A DNA stretch of 36,651 nt from Verrucomicrobiota bacterium (GCA_038209745.1 JBBQXJ010000044.1:1-36651), one strand, 5' to 3'; shown: positions 1 to 32,898, numbered from the stretch's first letter. The notes: generated by a model from the sequence alone, not told the origin. Made by a program: numbers and translations.

Positions 1-138
1 CCGCTCGGTCAGGGAGAAGAAGGAAAGCTCAGAGGGACGAATGGTTTCGGACACGCGTTCTTGGACGAAAATCCCGCCCTGCTTGCTCAATTTCAACGAC
101 TGTTTCTTTTCTGGAAAATCGAGTTTCTGGAAGTCCCC

Positions 139-180
139 TTAAAGCGAACAACGCCCCGGTTAAAGCGAACAACGCCCCGG
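139..180. repeat. Perfect 21-bp tandem duplication (TTAAAGCGAACAACGCCCCGG x2)
   Basis: Identical units at 139-159 and 160-180, just upstream of the integrase remnant. Confidence 0.95.
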
Positions 181-24961: not shown

Positions 24962-25162
24962 TCGAACGGGGAGCCGACGACGCACCCATCCCCGGTCGTG
25001 CCGCAGATCGCGGATTGTCAGTCGCCAAGGGCCCGACCCTTGGCGACTTTCCCTTTTGCAGGGAAACCGAATCAACAGATGTCGCGAAAATGGGCGAAAA
25101 GAGTGTGCTTTTCGATGAATGAAGGGAGAGCCGCACAACGTCGGATGCGGCGACGGACAACG

Positions 25163-25909
25163 ATGTATAGGCGATCAACGTGCGGACTTTCGGCGGCCTC
25201 GGCGGTGCTTGCAGTGTCGGGTATCTCCGTGTTCTGGCCGTCGGCATCCACGCTGACGGAAGGGACCAAGTGGGAATCGAGCGCCGCATTTGGCTTCACC
25301 GTGACGCAGGGCAACAGCGATACAATCCTCACTTTCCTCAACTTGGTCAGCACCAAGAAGTGGGCGAAAAACGAGGTGACGGCATCCGCTGCGATGACCT
25401 ATGGGCAGAACCAGGGTCGACGCACTTCCGACCACCAGAGATTCTCCCCCAAAACAACCGGTTGGTCTCGGAGAAGGCCTTCGTCTACGGCCGTCTGGAC
25501 GCGCTCCGGGACATCCTCGCCAACGTGGACGACAGCCTTACGTTCTCTCCGGGTGGGGGATATTACTTTTGGAAGGACCCCATCTGGGCTTCGTGCGGAT
25601 GGATCTCGGTCCCGGTTACATCATCGAAAACAAAGGCGGCGATATTTCATACCCCGTCACGCTGCGTGTCGCCGAACGGTTAGAATAAAAGGTCAACGAT
25701 CCCGTGAAGGTTGGCAGTCGCTGGAGGATTTGCCGGTCATCGACAAGTTCTCCATCTGCCGCATCGTCGGCGAGATCGGTTTGGAGACAAAGCGGATGAA
25801 GAGCCTCACGCTCCGCTCCTACACCCGGGATTCCTCCGACAAAAGCGTCGCCGACGGCAGGAAGGAAAACGACCTCATGTTCGTCACCCAAGCGGGCTTC
25901 AAGTTCAGA
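25163..25909 (+). pseudogene. DUF481/YdiY-like outer-membrane beta-barrel pseudogene
   Basis: Family-like segments are spread over three frames (KWESSAAFGFTVTQGNSDT; GGGYYFWK; LGPGYIIE; KENDLMFVTQAGFKF) with frameshifts and a stop. The start position is approximate. Confidence 0.7.
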
Positions 25910-25927
25910 CCCGAAGCGGGTGGAACC

Positions 25928-26851
25928 TCATCCCCAGATCTCGGACGAGCGAAGCTGCTTCAGCAGAAGTTCGTTCAGCGACGTGTCCGAGGCCACGGAG
26001 AAGAAGTGGACGCCGCGACCGGCGCAGAACTCCTTCAGCCGGCGCCGGAAATTCTCCACCGTCTGCTGGTAGGCCTTGAGCCGGAACTTTCCGAACGTCA
26101 CCTCCTGGGAGCCGCCCGTCTCGGAGTCCACCAGGCGCAGATCCCCGAAGCTCGACGGGTCCAGTTCCTCCCGGGCCAGCACCTGGATCGCGTTCACCTG
26201 GAAGCCGCGACTGACCAGCGCGTTCAGACCGTCCTCGTAGCCGGCGGGATCGAGAAAGTCGCTCAGGACAATTGCGACGCCGGAGTGCCGGGCCTCCATC
26301 GCGCCGCGCCGGAGGCAGTCGTTGAAGTTGGCGGTGCCGCCCACCCGGATCCGGGCCAGATGGTTGAAGTATTGCAGGGAGGACTTCTTGCCGCGCATCG
26401 AACGCAGGGCGCCCCGCGCGTTCAGCTCGGCGGTCTGGACGTCGGTGTCTCCGGCTCCGGGAGCGGCCGCCGGAAAGGGAACGACGCTGACACGGTCGAA
26501 GCCGCAGAGCGCGACGTAGCCGATGGCGGCGGCGACCTGGCGGGCAAAGTCGAACTTCGAAGGCTCGCCGAATCCCATCGAATCGCTCGCGTCGAGAAAG
26601 ATCCGGACCGGGAGTTCGCGCTCTTCTTCGTAGAGCTTGAGGAAAAGCCGGTCGAGTCGACCGAAGAGGTTCCAGTCGAGGTAGCGGAGGTCGTCGCCGG
26701 AAACGTAGTTCCGGTAGTCGGCGAACTCGACCGATTGGCCGCGGGCTCGGCTGCGGCGTTCGCCCTTGGCGGAGCTCTTCGCGCGGCGGGCCGCCAACAG
26801 CTGGAACTGTTCAAGCCTCCGCAGCAGGTCCGGGGTCAGCAAGGCACTCAT
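25928..26851 (-). CDS. DUF58 domain protein (VWA-like, MoxR-associated family)
   Basis: GQSVEFADYRNYVSGDDLRYLDWN, LDASDSM, VLSDFL. Confidence 0.92.
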   Translation of the reverse strand: MSALLTPDLLRRLEQFQLLAARRAKSSAKGERRSRARGQSVEFADYRNYVSGDDLRYLDWNLFGRLDRLFLKLYEEERELPVRIFLDASDSMGFGEPSKFDFARQVAAAIGYVALCGFDRVSVVPFPAAAPGAGDTDVQTAELNARGALRSMRGKKSSLQYFNHLARIRVGGTANFNDCLRRGAMEARHSGVAIVLSDFLDPAGYEDGLNALVSRGFQVNAIQVLAREELDPSSFGDLRLVDSETGGSQEVTFGKFRLKAYQQTVENFRRRLKEFCAGRGVHFFSVASDTSLNELLLKQLRSSEIWG

Positions 26852-26999
26852 GGCGTCGGCGAAAAGATGGCGGAACACCCGCCGGAGGCGAGCACAACCT
26901 GCGGCGCCGATGGCGATCACCGTGGATCCCGCTTTCTTGAGCTCGCCGCAATTCTACATTCTCCACCACGACCCGGACGAAACCGATCACCGTCACGCT

Positions 27000-27661
27000 G
27001 GACGGTCCGTTGCTGGAGGCGAGGAACCCCAGGGCGACCGAGTGTCCAGTCGATCGTTACGGGAACCAAACCGCCCAGCCGCAGACGCACGGACAAATTC
27101 GGCGCGTCGATCGGCGTGCGGGTGTTGCCGATGACCTCGGTGCCGACGTCCAGCAGCGCGAGGTTGATCAACTCCGTCGGGCTGAGGTTGAGGTCGAAAG
27201 CCAGTTCGGTGAGCGCCAGATCGGTGCGCAGGCGCAAAGGGACCGAGTGGGTTTCGCCGCCGAAGACGTTGGTTGATCCGACCGCCAGGATGAAGTCGGC
27301 CGTCGTGTCGCGGACGACCACGCTGAAGGTCTTGGTGCCGCCGAGGGGAGGAACACCGTTGTCGGCTGCGACGAGGGTGATCTGGTTCGTGCTCGGGCCC
27401 GTCCCCCTGGAAGCGCCGTTGGTCACGGTGGCGACGGGTGCATTGGAGCCGTGCCTGAACCGCAACGTGTCGGGGAAGTCGCGCAGGTCGGGCACGCCGT
27501 TCGCCAGGAAGTCCGGCAGTCCGTCCCCCCCGCGAATGGTCCGCCTGGACAATGTGGATCATCTCGTGGATCTCCAGCCGGTCGATCAACGGCAGGCGGG
27601 CATTGCCGAGACCGTCGACGTGTTCGAAGGATGCGTTGTAGCCGGTGAACAATCCCAGCAA
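27000..27661 (-). pseudogene. Remnant of a large secreted/adhesin-like protein gene
   Basis: Frameshifted fragments GLFTGYNASFEHVDGLG...IHEMIH and DGLPDFLAN..PD..D.PDTL, then Ig/cadherin-like GPSTNQITLVAADNGVPPL..TFSVVV. No signal peptide or proper start; boundaries approximate. Confidence 0.55.
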
Positions 27662-27747
27662 CGAACTCTTGAAGAGCCAGCGGCCGACCTTGTGCGCGCC
27701 GGGGGCGATGTCGCCAGAGTTGCTGTTCGTTTGGCAGAGAGTTGTCC

Positions 27748-27776
27748 GGCGGCTTGGCCGTCGCCAGCGCCCTACC
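27748..27776 (-). repeat. REP-like element, copy 2
   Basis: GGCGGCTTGGCCGTCGCCAGCGCCCTACC, 25/29 identical to 759-787. Confidence 0.6.
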
Positions 27777-27790
27777 GCACCCCCTTGGAT

Positions 27791-28024
27791 TCAGCCCCTT
27801 TTGCTGCGTCGGCCTCTGCTCCTCACTCCGTTGCAGGAGAGAAGGGTGGACTTGGCGTCGTTGTAGGCCGTCTCCAGCGTGTTCGATTCGTCCGCCAGCG
27901 CCGCCAGCGAAGGCGTCGGCGTGGGGAAATCGGGATTGCCGGTCATGGCTTGCGAGATCGGGCGGCCGAATTGGATCTTGTCGGACACGGACAGGCGGTT
28001 GAGGCGCAGTTTGATCAGGCTCAA
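27791..28024 (-). pseudogene. Truncated 5' fragment of a helical protein of a type often fused to FN3 domains
   Basis: MTGNPDFPTPTPSLAAL motif followed by an amphipathic helix; the sequence stops looking coding-like after about 60 codons. Confidence 0.45.
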
Positions 28025-28171
28025 GATTTTTTCCTCATTGGGTTACCGGGACCGCGCCGGGCGAAGCCCACCGCGGTTTGTTATCGGGAATGCAGTCCAA
28101 TAGCCGGCACGACTTCACGCCATCACCCGGCAAGAATGTCCGGGTGGATCCCACCCGTGTTGGTCTGGACT

Positions 28172-28361
28172 GGAACGATGCAGTGGAAATGAATGGCGAT
28201 CGCGGCCGCCCCGGCTGCCGTCCGGCGCGCCCCGCGCCGGACACGGACGCGTCCTCGGACCCACCCGGCGGTGAATCTTTTCCTGCGCCTCCATTGGATC
28301 GCGAGGGCGCGGTCCAATGCGCCAGGGGCGGGCGCGCTCCCCATCCCCACTGCGTCGTTCC
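28172..28361. mobile_element. 190-bp REPIN/MITE-like element
   Basis: Terminal inverted repeats GGAACGATGCAGTGG (28172-28186) and CCACTGCGTCGTTCC (28347-28361), 14/15 match; internal hairpins at 28220-28242 and 28292-28319. Confidence 0.7.
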
Positions 28362-28462
28362 GTCGGAAATGGCCGGTTGTGCCTCTCACCCGGAGCCGTG
28401 TTGGGGTGGATTGGAACGATGTGAGGCTACTTTCGGGTCGTGTTGAAAAACTCGGAGACAGT

Positions 28463-30922
28463 TTAGGCCTGCCCGGGGCCGATGTAGACGAGAGAAGGGA
28501 GAACCATCACAAGAAACGCGCGTTTGTTCACCCGTTCGACGTAGGCATCCCAACCCTCCTTGCCGTGCAGCAACCCGTAGGGAGTCAGCTTGCCTTTTTC
28601 CTTGGTGTGGTTCACGTCGTGCGTGGTCAGCACATAGTTCACCGCCGCATCCGGGCCACCAACCGAGCGGGGCACGATGTGGTCGATCTCGTATTCGTCC
28701 AGCTTGGTCTCGCAAAGCGGCTGGCCGGTGTAGAGGCAGATGCCGCCTTGGGCTTTGAACAACTCGTAACGCAAACCGGAGGAGCGGGAATCCAAGCCAA
28801 GTTCCGCCGCCTTCTCGCGTGACGTCTTGCGCTCCTTTTCACGGTCATCGAGGAAGCGTTGGTAATTTGCGGCAGCCTCCTTGCCCATGAAGTCCTCTCG
28901 GACGAACTCCAGCACGATGCTGTCGGGAATACCGAAGCCGTCAAACTTGTGGGGATTCTTCTTGTCGCCGAATTGGAGAAACTCCAACCGCTCGGCAAAA
29001 ACGCCAAGCCGATGCCGCACGATGGGGTCGTTGACGGTGCCAAGCAGGTCTCGGATGGCGGCTTCGGAATCCAGCTTGGCGTCCTCGGTGTGCCGGCCCT
29101 TGAGCGCTTCGAGCGTCTGCGAGGGGACGAAGATGTTCTCCCATGAGTCAGGACTGTTGTCGTCCCTCCGCATTTGGAGCAGGAAGTGGAGTTCTGACAA
29201 GAGCAAGCCCCGTTTGCGGCTCTCGGTGTTCTCGGCCTCCGTCGAGCCGGCGAACAAGGCCAGCGGCTTGTCAGGAGCCGAGCCGAGCTTGGCCAGGAGT
29301 TCAGGTTCACGGCTCTTCAACCGTGCATGGAAGGCGGATGGAGCGTTCCCAGAAAGGATGAGTTCCTTGAGGATGCGGAGGGCGACGCGGGAGTAGGCGC
29401 TGCGGCCGGATGCCTTGGGCGCCTTCACTTCCTCGTGTCCGGGCAGAGGCTTCAGGTCCGGCCGGTTCAGCTTCTTCCGGTGGCCCCATTCCGTTTTGGT
29501 GAGGGCGAAGCACTTGGCGACCATGTCGGGCCAGCTCTTGGCGAACTCGCCCGTGGAGCTGACCAGTTTGCCGGCTTTGAGCTCCTGGAGGGCATCGGCG
29601 AAGATGTCCCGGACTTCCTGCGGCAAAAGCTTGCGCTGGCCCTTCTCCGAATCGCCTACGAGCAAGTTTTTGAGCTTCATCAGGAAGGTGACTTCGGTGG
29701 AGAGCAGGGATTCGGGAACCGGCTTCCCTGTCTGCCGGTCTATTCGCACGTCCAACTTGCAGACGTGGAAGCGGGGGATGAGCACGCAGTCGTTGAGGAT
29801 GCGGTTGTCGAACTTGGGAGTCTTCTGTCCGAGAGCGGCCATCCATTCCTCGAAGGTGCCGGTGCGGAGCCCGGCCGCTTTGCGCTGGCTCAAGAACGCC
29901 TCGAACGTGCTTTCGTCCGGCGTTCCACCCGGACCGTCGCAAAGGAACTCGCCGAAGTTTTTGGCGCGAACCGGATAGGTCAGCACCGTCGTCGTGACAG
30001 GATGCGTACAGGTCCATCCTTCGCACTGCCAGCGCGCGAAGGCATCGCCCAGCGCGGGAAGAATTTTGGCGGCCTCATCTCCGAGCTTGATGAGTTCCTT
30101 GCGAACATCCGCGCGGTCGAAACGAACGTTGCGCGTGCTGCCGGCGACGTGGGTCACACGGGTTTCGAGCTTGTCGGGTGCGGCGGGATTCCATAGGCCC
30201 ATCTGGAAGGCGTCATAGTAGCACGGCAGGTGGTGTTCACGAGCGATCGGCTTGCGCTGCGGGTCATGCGTCTCGTCCTCGCTCTGCTTGAAGCCGCGCT
30301 TTAATTTCTTCCACCCTGCTTCGCCTGCCAAATCCTGAGCCTCGTCCTCCTTTGCTTTTACCGGTGCGCGTGCCGTCTCTTTCGCTGCCCAAGGCACCTT
30401 TCCGTAGCCGCGCCTTTGGAGCGCGGAACGGAGCGCTTTGTAAATTTGCCATTCGTGGAGCGAACCCTCGCTTCGCAGCAGGCGGATGCGGAGAAGGCAG
30501 GAGGTGTAGCAGGTGTTGTCGTCGACCTTGGCGAACTCCCGCTCGAGTCGCGGGTCAGCGTTGGCCACCTGTTGCCAGCGGCCTTTCCGTTTGGACCACT
30601 CGGACTCGGGAATCGGTTTGCCGGCCTCATCCACTTTGCCGACCTGGCGTCCGCGCAGCGGCGATAGGCCGGCCGCGGTCCACACCGTCTCCAGCCAGCG
30701 TTCGCGGGCGTGGTGCGCCTCGCGGGTCTTCAGCGCGCGGTATTTGTTGGCGGGCGAACCCGAAGCGGTGGCCGGCCCCCGGCGGGCCAAGTCTGCCGGA
30801 ATCAGGAGCGACTCGACGTGCGGAAACGAATTGTCTGAGGTTCTGCGAACCGCTTCGCCGATAGACCCTTTGCCTAGGTCGAAAGCCCAGATCGTTTCAC
30901 CAAGCAGGGGAATGCTCTCCAT
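28463..30922 (-). CDS. cas9: Divergent Cas9, C-terminally truncated after HNH (possibly a pseudogene)
   Basis: RuvC-I WAFDLGKGSIG (D15), basic bridge helix, LRIRLL...ALQRRGY REC signature, RuvC-II IVLEFVRE, LFKAQGGICLYTG and HNH YEIDHIVPRS...NYVL.....N..K. No RuvC-III, WED or PAM-interacting region. Confidence 0.85.
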   Translation of the reverse strand: MESIPLLGETIWAFDLGKGSIGEAVRRTSDNSFPHVESLLIPADLARRGPATASGSPANKYRALKTREAHHARERWLETVWTAAGLSPLRGRQVGKVDEAGKPIPESEWSKRKGRWQQVANADPRLEREFAKVDDNTCYTSCLLRIRLLRSEGSLHEWQIYKALRSALQRRGYGKVPWAAKETARAPVKAKEDEAQDLAGEAGWKKLKRGFKQSEDETHDPQRKPIAREHHLPCYYDAFQMGLWNPAAPDKLETRVTHVAGSTRNVRFDRADVRKELIKLGDEAAKILPALGDAFARWQCEGWTCTHPVTTTVLTYPVRAKNFGEFLCDGPGGTPDESTFEAFLSQRKAAGLRTGTFEEWMAALGQKTPKFDNRILNDCVLIPRFHVCKLDVRIDRQTGKPVPESLLSTEVTFLMKLKNLLVGDSEKGQRKLLPQEVRDIFADALQELKAGKLVSSTGEFAKSWPDMVAKCFALTKTEWGHRKKLNRPDLKPLPGHEEVKAPKASGRSAYSRVALRILKELILSGNAPSAFHARLKSREPELLAKLGSAPDKPLALFAGSTEAENTESRKRGLLLSELHFLLQMRRDDNSPDSWENIFVPSQTLEALKGRHTEDAKLDSEAAIRDLLGTVNDPIVRHRLGVFAERLEFLQFGDKKNPHKFDGFGIPDSIVLEFVREDFMGKEAAANYQRFLDDREKERKTSREKAAELGLDSRSSGLRYELFKAQGGICLYTGQPLCETKLDEYEIDHIVPRSVGGPDAAVNYVLTTHDVNHTKEKGKLTPYGLLHGKEGWDAYVERVNKRAFLVMVLPSLVYIGPGQA

Positions 30923-31068
30923 TTGATAGGATTAGATGTGCAATGCGCCCACAAATGCAAGGCCCTCGGAAGGCGGACATTAGGCAGAATTCCACGACGG
31001 GGTTTCAAGCCGAGTCACACTCAACGGCTTGGTGAGAAGATTTGAGCAGGAGGGTAGGGAGTATCGCC

Positions 31069-31417
31069 ATGACCTTCAGCTTCTTCGGCAATTGGCACTG
31101 GGTGTTTCCCGCGCACGGGGTGCTCGACGAAAACCTGACGAGCGACAGGCAAGAAATCGTCACTTCACCCCTGATCCCTCCCCCCGTTCGAGGCGGAGAG
31201 GGAAACGCGGTTCGTGTTCACCTCCGGCTGGCTGGTGCAGAACGGCGTGATCCGGCTGCTGGACGTCTGGTCCCTGGGGTTGTTGACCCGGCGACTGGCG
31301 CCTTCGTTCCCGGAAGCGCGTATCGCCCTCCTCCACCGCAATGGCCTCAAAGCCGCCGCCGTAGGGGCCGGCCTGTTCTGGAACTACGCCTGGTATCGCA
31401 TGTGGGTCTTCGCGTAG
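31069..31417 (+). pseudogene. GtrA-family membrane protein remnant, 5'-truncated and interrupted
   Basis: MTFSFFGNWHWVF in one frame and RFVFTS...LKAAAVGAGLFWNYAWYRMWVFA in another; the frame change coincides with a palindromic insert near 31162-31207. Confidence 0.6.
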
Positions 31418-31599
31418 GGGTGTTCTTTTTGCCCGTTCCGGCCGGGAATCGCGCCATGTCGAAAACGGCATGGGAGGTGTGGGGATAAAAATGCGCACTC
31501 ACTACCACGAAACCGTAGTCCGGAAGGGCGGAACGGAAGGTTCCGGCGGTGAGGAGGGAACCGGCGCTTTCGCAACGAGGCCGTTGCCGTCGGTGAACT

Positions 31600-31754
31600 G
31601 GAACGCGGAGCATCGCGCCGCCCGAATGGAACGGAAATGCCCCAAACAGAGCGGATCCAAAACGCCTCACCAGACGGTGGCTCGATTTCGTCACTGGGAA
31701 ACGGCTCCACTCTCCTGCTCCAGCAAGCCCTTGCGGAGCGATGCTCCGCGCTCC
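31600..31754. repeat. REP-doublet (REPIN-like) element
   Basis: GGAACGCGGAGCATCGCGCCGC (31600-31621) and GCGGAGCGATGCTCCGCGCTCC (31733-31754) are inverted copies (20/22), each internally palindromic. Confidence 0.7.
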
Positions 31755-31987
31755 TTCTGCCTCGTTGCGGGCTAAGCTGGATTGCGGGGCCCGGACGGCA
31801 AGGACGACCATTGACGGTTTGACTCCGAGGATCGGCCTGTTTAGTAGATTGGTTCGTCAGCGCAAAGGACCAGGCGATGTCGGTGTCACAATGACGGAAG
31901 CCCGGTCCACAAGACCCCCTCCGGACTCTGCAGGAGCAGGTGCCCCGGCACATCCACGGTTCTTTTTGGGACGGATTTAAAAGTTTC

Positions 31988-32311
31988 ATGAGCGAAAACA
32001 GACTATTTGTGGGCAATCTCTCCTTCCAGACCCTGGAAAACGATCTACAGGACCACTTCAGCCAAGCGGGCGTCGTGTCCTCCGTGAACTTGATGTTCGA
32101 CAAGCTATCCGGCAAATCGCGTGGTTTTGCTTTCATCGAATTCTCCACTGCGCAAGAGGCTGCCAAGGCCGTCGCAATGTTCCAGGGCAAGGAACTCCTA
32201 GGACGCGCCCTCACTGTGAACCTGGCCATGCCTCGGGAAGAGCGTGCTCCCCGAGAAGGGGGCGGCGGAAGGCGTGGCGAACGGGGCGGCGACCGTGAAC
32301 GCCGCTCGTAG
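31988..32311 (+). CDS. RRM-domain RNA-binding protein
   Basis: RNP2 LFVGNL, RNP1 RGFAFIEF, Gly/Arg-rich tail. Confidence 0.95.
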   Translation: MSENRLFVGNLSFQTLENDLQDHFSQAGVVSSVNLMFDKLSGKSRGFAFIEFSTAQEAAKAVAMFQGKELLGRALTVNLAMPREERAPREGGGGRRGERGGDRERRS

Positions 32312-32338
32312 TCCCATAGTCGGGCAGGTAAATTCTCG

Positions 32339-32377
32339 GCGGTCCCTTCTTCGGGGAAGGACCGCTTTTTTGTTTTT
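32339..32377 (+). terminator. Rho-independent terminator
   Basis: GCGGTCC...GGACCGC stem followed by TTTTTTGTTTTT. Confidence 0.85.
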
Positions 32378-32390
32378 GAGGATTAACCGT

Positions 32391-32419
32391 TTGACACTCA
32401 TTTTTACGCTCCGTAGCGT
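32391..32419 (+). promoter_or_regulatory. Sigma70-type promoter
   Basis: TTGACA (32391-32396), 17-nt spacer, TAGCGT (32414-32419), upstream of the ATG at 32437. Confidence 0.7.
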
Positions 32420-32436
32420 CCTTCTTCAGAATCCGT

Positions 32437-32898
32437 ATGTCTGAAAACACGCCGACGCCCGATGGAGGGCTCCCCCCAAAACCCGCAGAAGCGGGCAAGG
32501 TTCAACCCAAGCAGGCCACGGTCCGCATCAGTCTTCCTCCGAAGCCTGCCGGCGGCGCGACGATCCGGCTTCCGACCATGAAGCCGGCGGCGCCAGCACT
32601 CTCGGTGGCGGCCGCTCCCTCGGAGCCTACTGGAGCTCCCGGTGCGCCGAAGCCGCCCACCGGTCCACGTGCGACGACGGCTCCGGTGGTGACCCGTCCA
32701 GGAGCGCCTTCCACGGCGCCTCGACCGATGGCGACCGGGGCGGGGCGTCCGGCGGCACCCGTTGCAGCGCGGGCTTCGGCTACGATCAGCACGACCGACA
32801 AGGTGTTGGCGATCGTCGCCATGGTTGCCGTGGTGGCGGCTGTCGCGGTCATCGCCCTGCTTACTTGGAGCGGCGACGAATTCTTCAAATCTGTTTAA
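32437..32898 (+). CDS. Hypothetical Pro/Ala-rich protein with a C-terminal TM anchor
   Basis: Low-complexity body with repeated TVRI/TIRL motifs and one hydrophobic C-terminal helix; promoter upstream. Confidence 0.75.

Follow-up and report, generated by a model that had tools for sequence, protein, structure and literature searches.

A cas9 gene of a Verrucomicrobiota bacterium, very probably broken recently by recombination into a non-coding repeat block

The open reading frame (ORF) analyzed here, at 28463..30922 of the minus strand, lies in a 36,651-nt stretch of DNA of a Verrucomicrobiota bacterium (GCA_038209745.1 JBBQXJ010000044.1:1-36651). This stretch, called the window below, is a whole contig, C44, of a 140-contig metagenome-assembled genome (MAG) that is 92% complete. 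The ORF is real and covers the 5' two-thirds of cas9, a type II effector gene from the family that NCBIfam calls Cas9d; it is very probably a recently broken remnant, the dead gene of a CRISPR-Cas (clustered regularly interspaced short palindromic repeats and associated proteins) locus that is being dismantled. In the proposed scenario, a very recent illegitimate recombination at a 5-nt microhomology would have joined codon 802 of cas9 to internal sequence of a non-coding repeat block situated upstream of the next gene (28024), and translation would run 17 codons into the block and stop. The product lacks RuvC-III with its conserved RHHALD stretch, as well as the WED and PI domains (the latter interacting with the protospacer-adjacent motif, PAM), so that the RuvC fold would be incomplete and the protein could neither hold the guide scaffold nor read the PAM. 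At least two breaks would have dismantled the locus, whose other end would be the one surviving on another contig of the same MAG, C12.

The ORF comprises 819 codons, begins with ATG, and has no internal stops. Its product scores 538.5 bits (E 5e-161) with the NCBIfam model NF049971 (type II CRISPR RNA-guided endonuclease Cas9d), whose cut-off is 375, and 441 of the 8000 scored candidates from a large protein collection are homologous to it at E <= 0.001; thus, the homology is far beyond chance. The match covers profile positions 1-619 of 986 only; six full-length relatives extend to positions 942-985. The Pfam scan of the ORF identified HNH_4 at residues 729-782 and produced no match to RuvC_III (PF18541). 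The catalytic residues D15 (the RuvC-I Asp), E672 (the RuvC-II Glu), H748 (the HNH His), and N762 and N771 (the HNH Asn) are all kept, being aligned to invariant columns of 26 full-length relatives. Based on NF049971 and on the alignment with full-length relatives, codons 1-801 (28520..30922, minus strand) encode RuvC-I, REC, RuvC-II, and HNH, followed by the beginning of the linker to RuvC-III. An earlier description of this DNA, made from the sequence alone and referred to as the first-pass annotation, had reported an unbroken 819-codon frame with intact RuvC-I Asp, RuvC-II Glu, and HNH residues, and all of these were recovered. The comparison with Cas9 and IscB profiles that it proposed was also made: identification as IscB was rejected, as NF040563 yields 20.1 bits, in the HNH region only, versus a cut-off of 175.

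Similarity to the relatives extends to ...WDAYVERVNKR(A), at approximately residue 801 (28520-28517), and no further, in agreement with the end near 28517 and the 17-residue tail noted in the first-pass annotation. In a 12-sequence alignment, the ORF tracks its relatives to ...GWDAYVERVNKR, after which the relatives run on with ...LRNKKVQLLTREDAPELV... and about 400 residues more. The three closest homologues (73, 70, and 69% identity; 1143-1204 amino acids), all of which contain PF18541, part from the ORF right after ...YVERVNKR and go on with ...LRNKKVQLLTREDA..., the last 17 residues of the ORF being FLVMVLPSLVYIGPGQA. The RuvC-III invariants D902 and R904-H905-H906-A-L-D909 (in the numbering of homologue P0003) have no counterpart in the ORF, and the approximately 400 post-break residues of the relatives, corresponding to the WED and PAM-interacting region, are missing from it in the alignment.

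The position of the break was determined by comparing the window with the intact allele found in three public sequencing runs (X2, X12, and X14, see below) and with the copies of the repeat block on contigs C12 and C128. Down to 28519, the window is identical to the intact allele; from 28523 on, as well as at 28527-28525, it is identical to the C12/C128 block. At the breakpoint (28519..28523, minus strand) the three sequences share a perfect 5-nt microhomology, ACGCG on the minus strand, inside a 9/10 match. Such a microhomology is a signature of illegitimate recombination and is too short to cause a mis-join by the assembler. The DNA from 28527/28523 to 28164 is repeated in the genome, with 94% identity to C12:847-1212 and 96% identity to C128:1545-1834 (blastn and alignment). 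C12 and C128 share 195 bp more upstream (starting from C12:652 and C128:1350, respectively), and the window lacks these first approximately 195 bp of the block; hence it holds the distal part only, and the join lies inside the block and not at the end of an element. This distal, low-copy part, at 28363..28523 as delineated by blastn and alignment, belongs to a block of 487+ bp that is present in three copies (the window, C12:652-1212, and C128:1350-1834).

The tail itself (28463..28519, minus strand) begins with the final residue of ...KRA and continues with FLVMVLPSLVYIGPGQA through the stop codon, and its DNA is that of the block, also found from C12:847 and from C128:1545 onwards. Since both other copies of the block are intergenic, and the frame of the tail is open there for 78 amino acids only, with a TAG inside it on C128, the 17 residues are the result of translation reading through into non-coding DNA and not the terminus of a different gene. 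The first-pass annotation had suggested a recent deletion that fused cas9 to the tail of another gene. The recent break and the foreign sequence are borne out by the microhomology and by an intact allele that is about 99% identical, but the partner proves to be the non-coding intergenic repeat block of C12 and C128.

The stretch is contained in 20 of the 24 listed sequencing runs, in 17 of which at least half of the sampled words are present, and no RNA run is on record among the 24. Four of the 20 (X1, X2, X12, and X14) were compared as Logan contigs (k = 31), with 31 letters on both sides of the break required for bridging it; the comparison shows 40 of the 77 letter differences and 24 of the 39 loose ends. 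The contigs of X2, X12, and X14 agree with the ORF as far as 28519 and diverge beyond it, and in frame (by hand, reverse-complemented) they read ...VNKR-V-T-S-L-R-N-K-K-V-Q, which is the family motif (...LRNKKVQ) seen at the same point in the relatives. The X2 contig of 5136 nt continues for 2439 nt past 28519; over 28519-31214 (2696 nt), 23 letters and one gap set it apart from the window, corresponding to approximately 99.1% identity. The whole cas9 is still present in near-identical strains from other samples, and the intact form is the commoner one among the four runs (three of four). The best match among the runs is X1, where a 395-nt contig with no differences covers 28494-28888 and goes along with the window for 25-30 letters beyond the break, into the repeat.

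These comparisons also bear on whether the contig joins cas9 to a wrong copy of the repeat while the true gene is whole. Such an artefact might be suspected from the join at the edge of a multi-copy repeat, from the 140 contigs of the MAG, which often end in repeats, and from the intact form in other samples. However, X1 represents a second assembly, in which the contig enters the repeat with no differences to the window and shows no branching at 28519, though branching would be expected were the intact allele also present; it ends inside the repeat, as is expected at a branching node. Further, the letters shared at the join, 5 or 9 of 10, are too few for a de Bruijn mis-join, and the sequence coding for the region from RuvC-III to PI is nowhere in the MAG. 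We consider an assembly artefact highly improbable.

Neither cas1 nor cas2 nor an array was found in the window, in accordance with the first-pass annotation, and its proposal to search the whole genome gave the same outcome. The MAG contains no match to the Cas1 or Cas2 families, and tblastn of it with the C-terminal approximately 400 residues of the five closest relatives yielded a best E of 0.25. The only other match to the Cas9d profile in it is a 210-residue HNH protein on contig C5. A k-mer scan of the MAG for CRISPR arrays produced seven candidate regions, all of which are tandem or coding repeats on inspection.

A search of the MAG with a repeat motif derived from the relatives' repeats identified one good site, C12:541. 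Just upstream of it, C12:361-386 encodes PEQVEFWE-stop, similar to the last eight codons of the relatives' cas2 (PDQVEFWE-stop), and is followed by a hairpin, an anti-repeat at about 448-480, and a single repeat ending at 560. This segment (locus L017), C12:361-560, is colinear with the region of the cas2 end, anti-repeat, and first repeat in three loci of relatives, L039, L037, and L040. RNAalifold predicts pairing between the anti-repeat and the repeat, with 9 of the 28 predicted pairs kept through changes on both sides. Approximately 90 nt past the repeat, at C12:652, the full copy of the block begins. The genome, therefore, contains two ends of such a locus, each beside a copy of the block, the missing middle being the 3' third of cas9, cas1, and nearly all of cas2. 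On the other side of the remnant, C12:206-360 is a different repeat, also found on C52, and C12:1-141 is a contig-end repeat with 99-100% identity to eight other contigs. The stretch C12:327-360 was considered as a further part of cas2 and rejected, since its E of 2-11 is not significant and it belongs to the repeat shared with C52; only the last eight codons were counted.

Alternatively, a mobile element could have interrupted cas9 at codon 802, with the remaining cas9, cas1, and cas2 lying beyond it on unassembled DNA. In favor of this, the MAG is 92% complete, the block includes an element similar to miniature inverted-repeat transposable elements (MITE), and the start of C12, shortly before the cas2-end remnant, is a contig-end repeat. 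On the other hand, the junction is situated about 195 bp inside the block and not at the end of an element, and the contig proceeds past the block into ordinary genes (DUF58 at 25928-26920, minus strand, and others). Moreover, the cas2 remnant of C12 is only eight codons long and preceded by other repeats, most of cas2 being gone there, and the C-terminal piece of Cas9 was not found in the MAG. An interruption of this kind seems very unlikely.

The family recognized by the Cas9d model comprises proteins of 1050-1350 amino acids, mostly from Verrucomicrobia MAGs and metagenomes. The relatives whose flanking DNA was examined, with 53% and 42% identity, are more distant than the closest homologues. 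In L037 (53% identity), the order is cas9 (1332 amino acids), cas1, cas2, anti-repeat, and an array of 45 36-nt repeats; the cas1 and cas2 genes were confirmed by Pfam, the upstream neighbour of cas9 encodes a histidine kinase, and in this relative, the one scanned for it, there is no cas4 between cas9 and the array. The arrays of L038, L040, and L041 contain 44, 64, and 96 repeats, respectively, and in all four loci (44-96 repeats) the array lies downstream of cas9. Further, cas1- or cas2-like ORFs are present in L039 and L040. The closest homologues are full-length, and the flanked relatives (53% and 42%) reside in ordinary CRISPR loci, which is in substance the situation that, according to the first-pass annotation, would mark the ORF as a simple pseudogene.

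Sequence searches of the PDB matched only the region from HNH to RuvC-III, with a best E of 2.7e-10 for one protein and 4.7e-23 for a 26-sequence profile. All of the 47 and 58 matches, respectively, were Cas9 chains of approximately 1050-1400 residues or isolated HNH domains, with no chain of about 750 residues among them. The family is large and has no solved structure close to it by sequence. This agrees in part with the first-pass annotation, which had supposed a little-studied lineage; the family is nonetheless a large one with its own NCBIfam model. The family of 1050-1350-residue Cas9 proteins may deserve attention itself, the evidence for this coming from the relatives and not from the ORF in the window.

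In Cas9 proteins, RuvC-III provides a part of the RuvC active site, and the WED and PI domains serve in holding the guide scaffold and reading the PAM. With all three missing, the product of the ORF would have lost its function. It would also have nothing to guide, given a genome with one repeat and no spacer. Both remnants may descend from one ancestral locus of the composition cas9-cas1-cas2-tracr-array (tracr standing for the trans-activating CRISPR RNA), followed by a copy of the block, with the order and type of events being either a deletion or an inversion plus a deletion. The single deletion proposed in the first-pass annotation does not account for the whole genome, as it leaves the second remnant on C12 unexplained, and three routes can be envisaged. 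First, cas9 could have recombined with a second copy of the block, upstream of the gene at 28024, by inversion or translocation, and the middle of the locus would then have been lost in a repeat- or insertion sequence-associated event together with collapse of the array. Second, the segment on C12 could be an older, separate remnant. Third, the MAG could be a mixture of two strains that differ in their deletion alleles. The X2 contig reaches 2439 nt past the break, compared with about 2475 nt roughly estimated from the break to the end of cas2 using gene lengths of P0002-P0004, L037, and L039; this reach fits a branch of the graph at a C12-type junction, within the limits of a rough estimate.

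Several observations weigh against a recently broken, dead gene as the complete explanation. One deletion in one genome cannot leave both the junction in the window, where cas9 meets approximately position 195 of the block, and the repeat with the full block on C12, so that extra events or a mixture of strains must be assumed. The frame is open over 801 codons with intact catalytic residues, which by itself does not exclude expression, and the MAG, at 92% completeness, does not prove that the missing parts are absent. Among the sequencing runs, the X1 contig extends only 25-30 letters past the junction, which corresponds to the overlap of k-1 letters in a k=31 graph and falls short of the 31 letters needed for bridging. 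As these are contigs only, neither allele frequencies nor pairing across the repeat can be read from them. Finally, the X1 segment 28366-28523 has only C12-like letters at four sites and does not fix which copy of the block follows cas9; hence, the identity of this copy rests on the assembly of the MAG.

The open frame and the intact catalytic residues might alternatively reflect a protein of the REC-RuvC-I/II-HNH composition retained for a new role, such as nicking by HNH, guide-free nuclease activity, or regulation. In favor of such a role, C12 retains a tracrRNA-like remnant with one repeat, in addition to the 801 open codons of the ORF, and the literature includes a full-length phage Cas9 described with a dead RuvC and a live HNH (PMC12669027). 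However, the break is very young, the intact allele being approximately 99% identical, so that the open frame says nothing about selection, and the tail is a non-coding repeat sequence. The other short homologues in the alignment (P0065, P0081, P0090, P0029, P0025, and P0046; 787-920 amino acids) differ in their end columns, by which a conserved short form of Cas9 was ruled out. The architecture known from Cas9 structures to bind guide and PAM is missing without RuvC-III, WED, and PI. The first-pass annotation had considered an HNH-only or PAM-less RNA-guided protein and had asked whether homologues end at the same point; they do not, and the intact form is the commoner one in the runs compared, both of which speak against it. 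We regard a retained short form as hardly credible.

Nor do the listed differences between the alleles point clearly to retention. Between the window and the alleles of X2, X12, and X14, 15 of the differences listed (40 of the 77) fall in cas9, 11 of them non-synonymous and 4 synonymous, and derived states, as polarised by the relatives, occur in both lineages, with no sign of purifying selection among those listed. Some derived states of the intact alleles are at conserved columns (E676K and V764L). This incomplete list of differences suggests relaxed or diversifying evolution of cas9 in the population (window 28519-30922). Contig depths are higher in the flanks than in cas9 in X2 (22.2 versus 14.1) and X12 (11.2 versus 5.8), and some cells might be without the locus, though contig depth is not reliable for such use. 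It is similarly hard to believe that the fragment (REC, RuvC-I/II, and HNH) is still expressed and acts together with the tracrRNA-like gene and the lone repeat of C12 as a guide-binding or HNH-only protein, for instance, a regulator or a dominant-negative factor against incoming type II systems, the break being in that case the first step of exaptation and not plain decay.

The recently broken remnant does not represent a novel type of system but an early-stage pseudogene of a known family. Full-length Cas9 proteins of NF049971 have the same N-terminal motif (WAFDLGKGSIGEA), REC, RuvC-II, and HNH, with up to 73% identity over residues 1-801. In contrast to the copy in the window, the relatives are approximately 400 residues longer, including RuvC-III with RHHALD, WED, and PI, and those with flanking DNA are in loci of cas9, cas1, cas2, anti-repeat, and array, all of which the window copy lacks. 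A false lead is removed, as the ORF is neither a natural mini-Cas9 nor an HNH-only effector. Its value is modest: it provides a clean natural case of CRISPR-Cas loss in progress, with intact and broken cas9 in near-identical environmental strains, a breakpoint located to the nucleotide, at a microhomology within an interspersed repeat block, and another remnant, the anti-repeat with one repeat, elsewhere in the genome.

Loss of CRISPR-Cas loci is a topic discussed in the literature. For instance, natural inactivation of cas9 in a population has been described for Mycoplasma gallisepticum after a host shift (PMC11893278). According to that paper, close strains carry functional or inactivated Cas9 and the loss of CRISPR-Cas is quick within a lineage, similarly to the case reported here; the organism and the Cas9 subtype are different, and the present case consists of a mapped rearrangement into a repeat block, seen in metagenome contigs only. 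The NCBIfam model passed by the ORF and its relatives is named Cas9d, as are the compact effectors of type II-D. However, published Cas9d and Cas9c2 effectors are given as approximately 600-1050 amino acids long (PMC9755519), and type II-D is defined by a Cas9 of the Cas9d clade and loci with a common adaptation module, cas1-cas2-cas4 (PMC12669027), whereas the family of the ORF has 1050-1350 amino acids and L037 contains cas1 and cas2 with no cas4 between cas9 and the array. For membership in II-D the NCBIfam label alone speaks, and the subtype name is uncertain. The phage-encoded II-C2 Cas9, with an inactivated RuvC and an apparently active HNH (PMC12669027), resembles the HNH-only alternative of the first-pass annotation in that only HNH could be active. 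It is described as having an inactivated RuvC and not as a truncation, unlike the ORF in the window, which lost a third of its length by a rearrangement.

The segment of the block next to its low-copy part is an approximately 190-bp palindromic interspersed repeat (28172..28362; MITE-like or resembling repetitive extragenic palindromes, REP), with terminal inverted repeats, as defined by blastn and folding. It gives 56 blastn high-scoring segment pairs in the MAG, 28 of them at least 150 nt long, with 75-89% identity and sharp common ends, and it occurs at 28172-28362 and in at least 27 other full-length places of the genome. Its consensus folds into one long hairpin with a minimum free energy of -154.7 kcal/mol. 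The Rfam scan of 27000-32500 (E <= 1) gave no match for this repeat and detected no tracrRNA or other RNA family; a match to snoU82P was dismissed as chance (18.4 bits versus a gathering score of 42).

In six genomes of the same genus, this cas9 was not found, two of them having weak matches to the HNH motif (E about 6e-4). The empty site could not be reconstructed from these six genomes, in which the flanks have 64-85% DNA identity and are on different contigs in each.

Downstream of the broken gene, the following gene on the minus strand (start at approximately 28024) has a leader and 5' end (27961..28131, minus strand) that are also repeated, with 94% identity to C12:27021-27192 by blastn and the start at C128:1824-1855; across the copies, the leader and first codons are 94-100% identical. 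Upstream of cas9, a short G+C-rich repeat at 31168..31214 has 91% identity to C12:26743-26789, and it is in this repeat, at 31214, that the contigs of X2, X12, and X14 end. In C12:26743-27192, the short upstream repeat is only about 60 nt from the leader, an arrangement that resembles the flanks of the window minus cas9 and the block segment. A plus-strand ORF of 1064 amino acids at 24998..28192 was rejected as a gene, having no Pfam match and being antisense to minus-strand genes such as DUF58; it is an artefact of high G+C content.

At position 27525, a C7 run is longer by one base in both the window and X1 compared with X2, X12, and X14, and dropping the additional base merges the minus-strand frames 26920-27558 and 26996-27790 into one frame of 290 amino acids. 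The gene beside the broken cas9 looks frameshifted in the strain of the window, or else a homopolymer error is common to both assemblies. Upstream of cas9, at 31153, all four runs, X1 included, have G>A and an inserted A relative to the window, which has either a private variant or a consensus error; X1 may not be its exact source. Finally, the window starts with a repeat (1-139) that has 99-100% identity to nine other contig ends and is followed by a 21-nt tandem repeat (139-189) also present on C54, C127, and C14; contig-end repeats such as window 1-139 and C12:1-141 are probably unassembled multi-copy elements.

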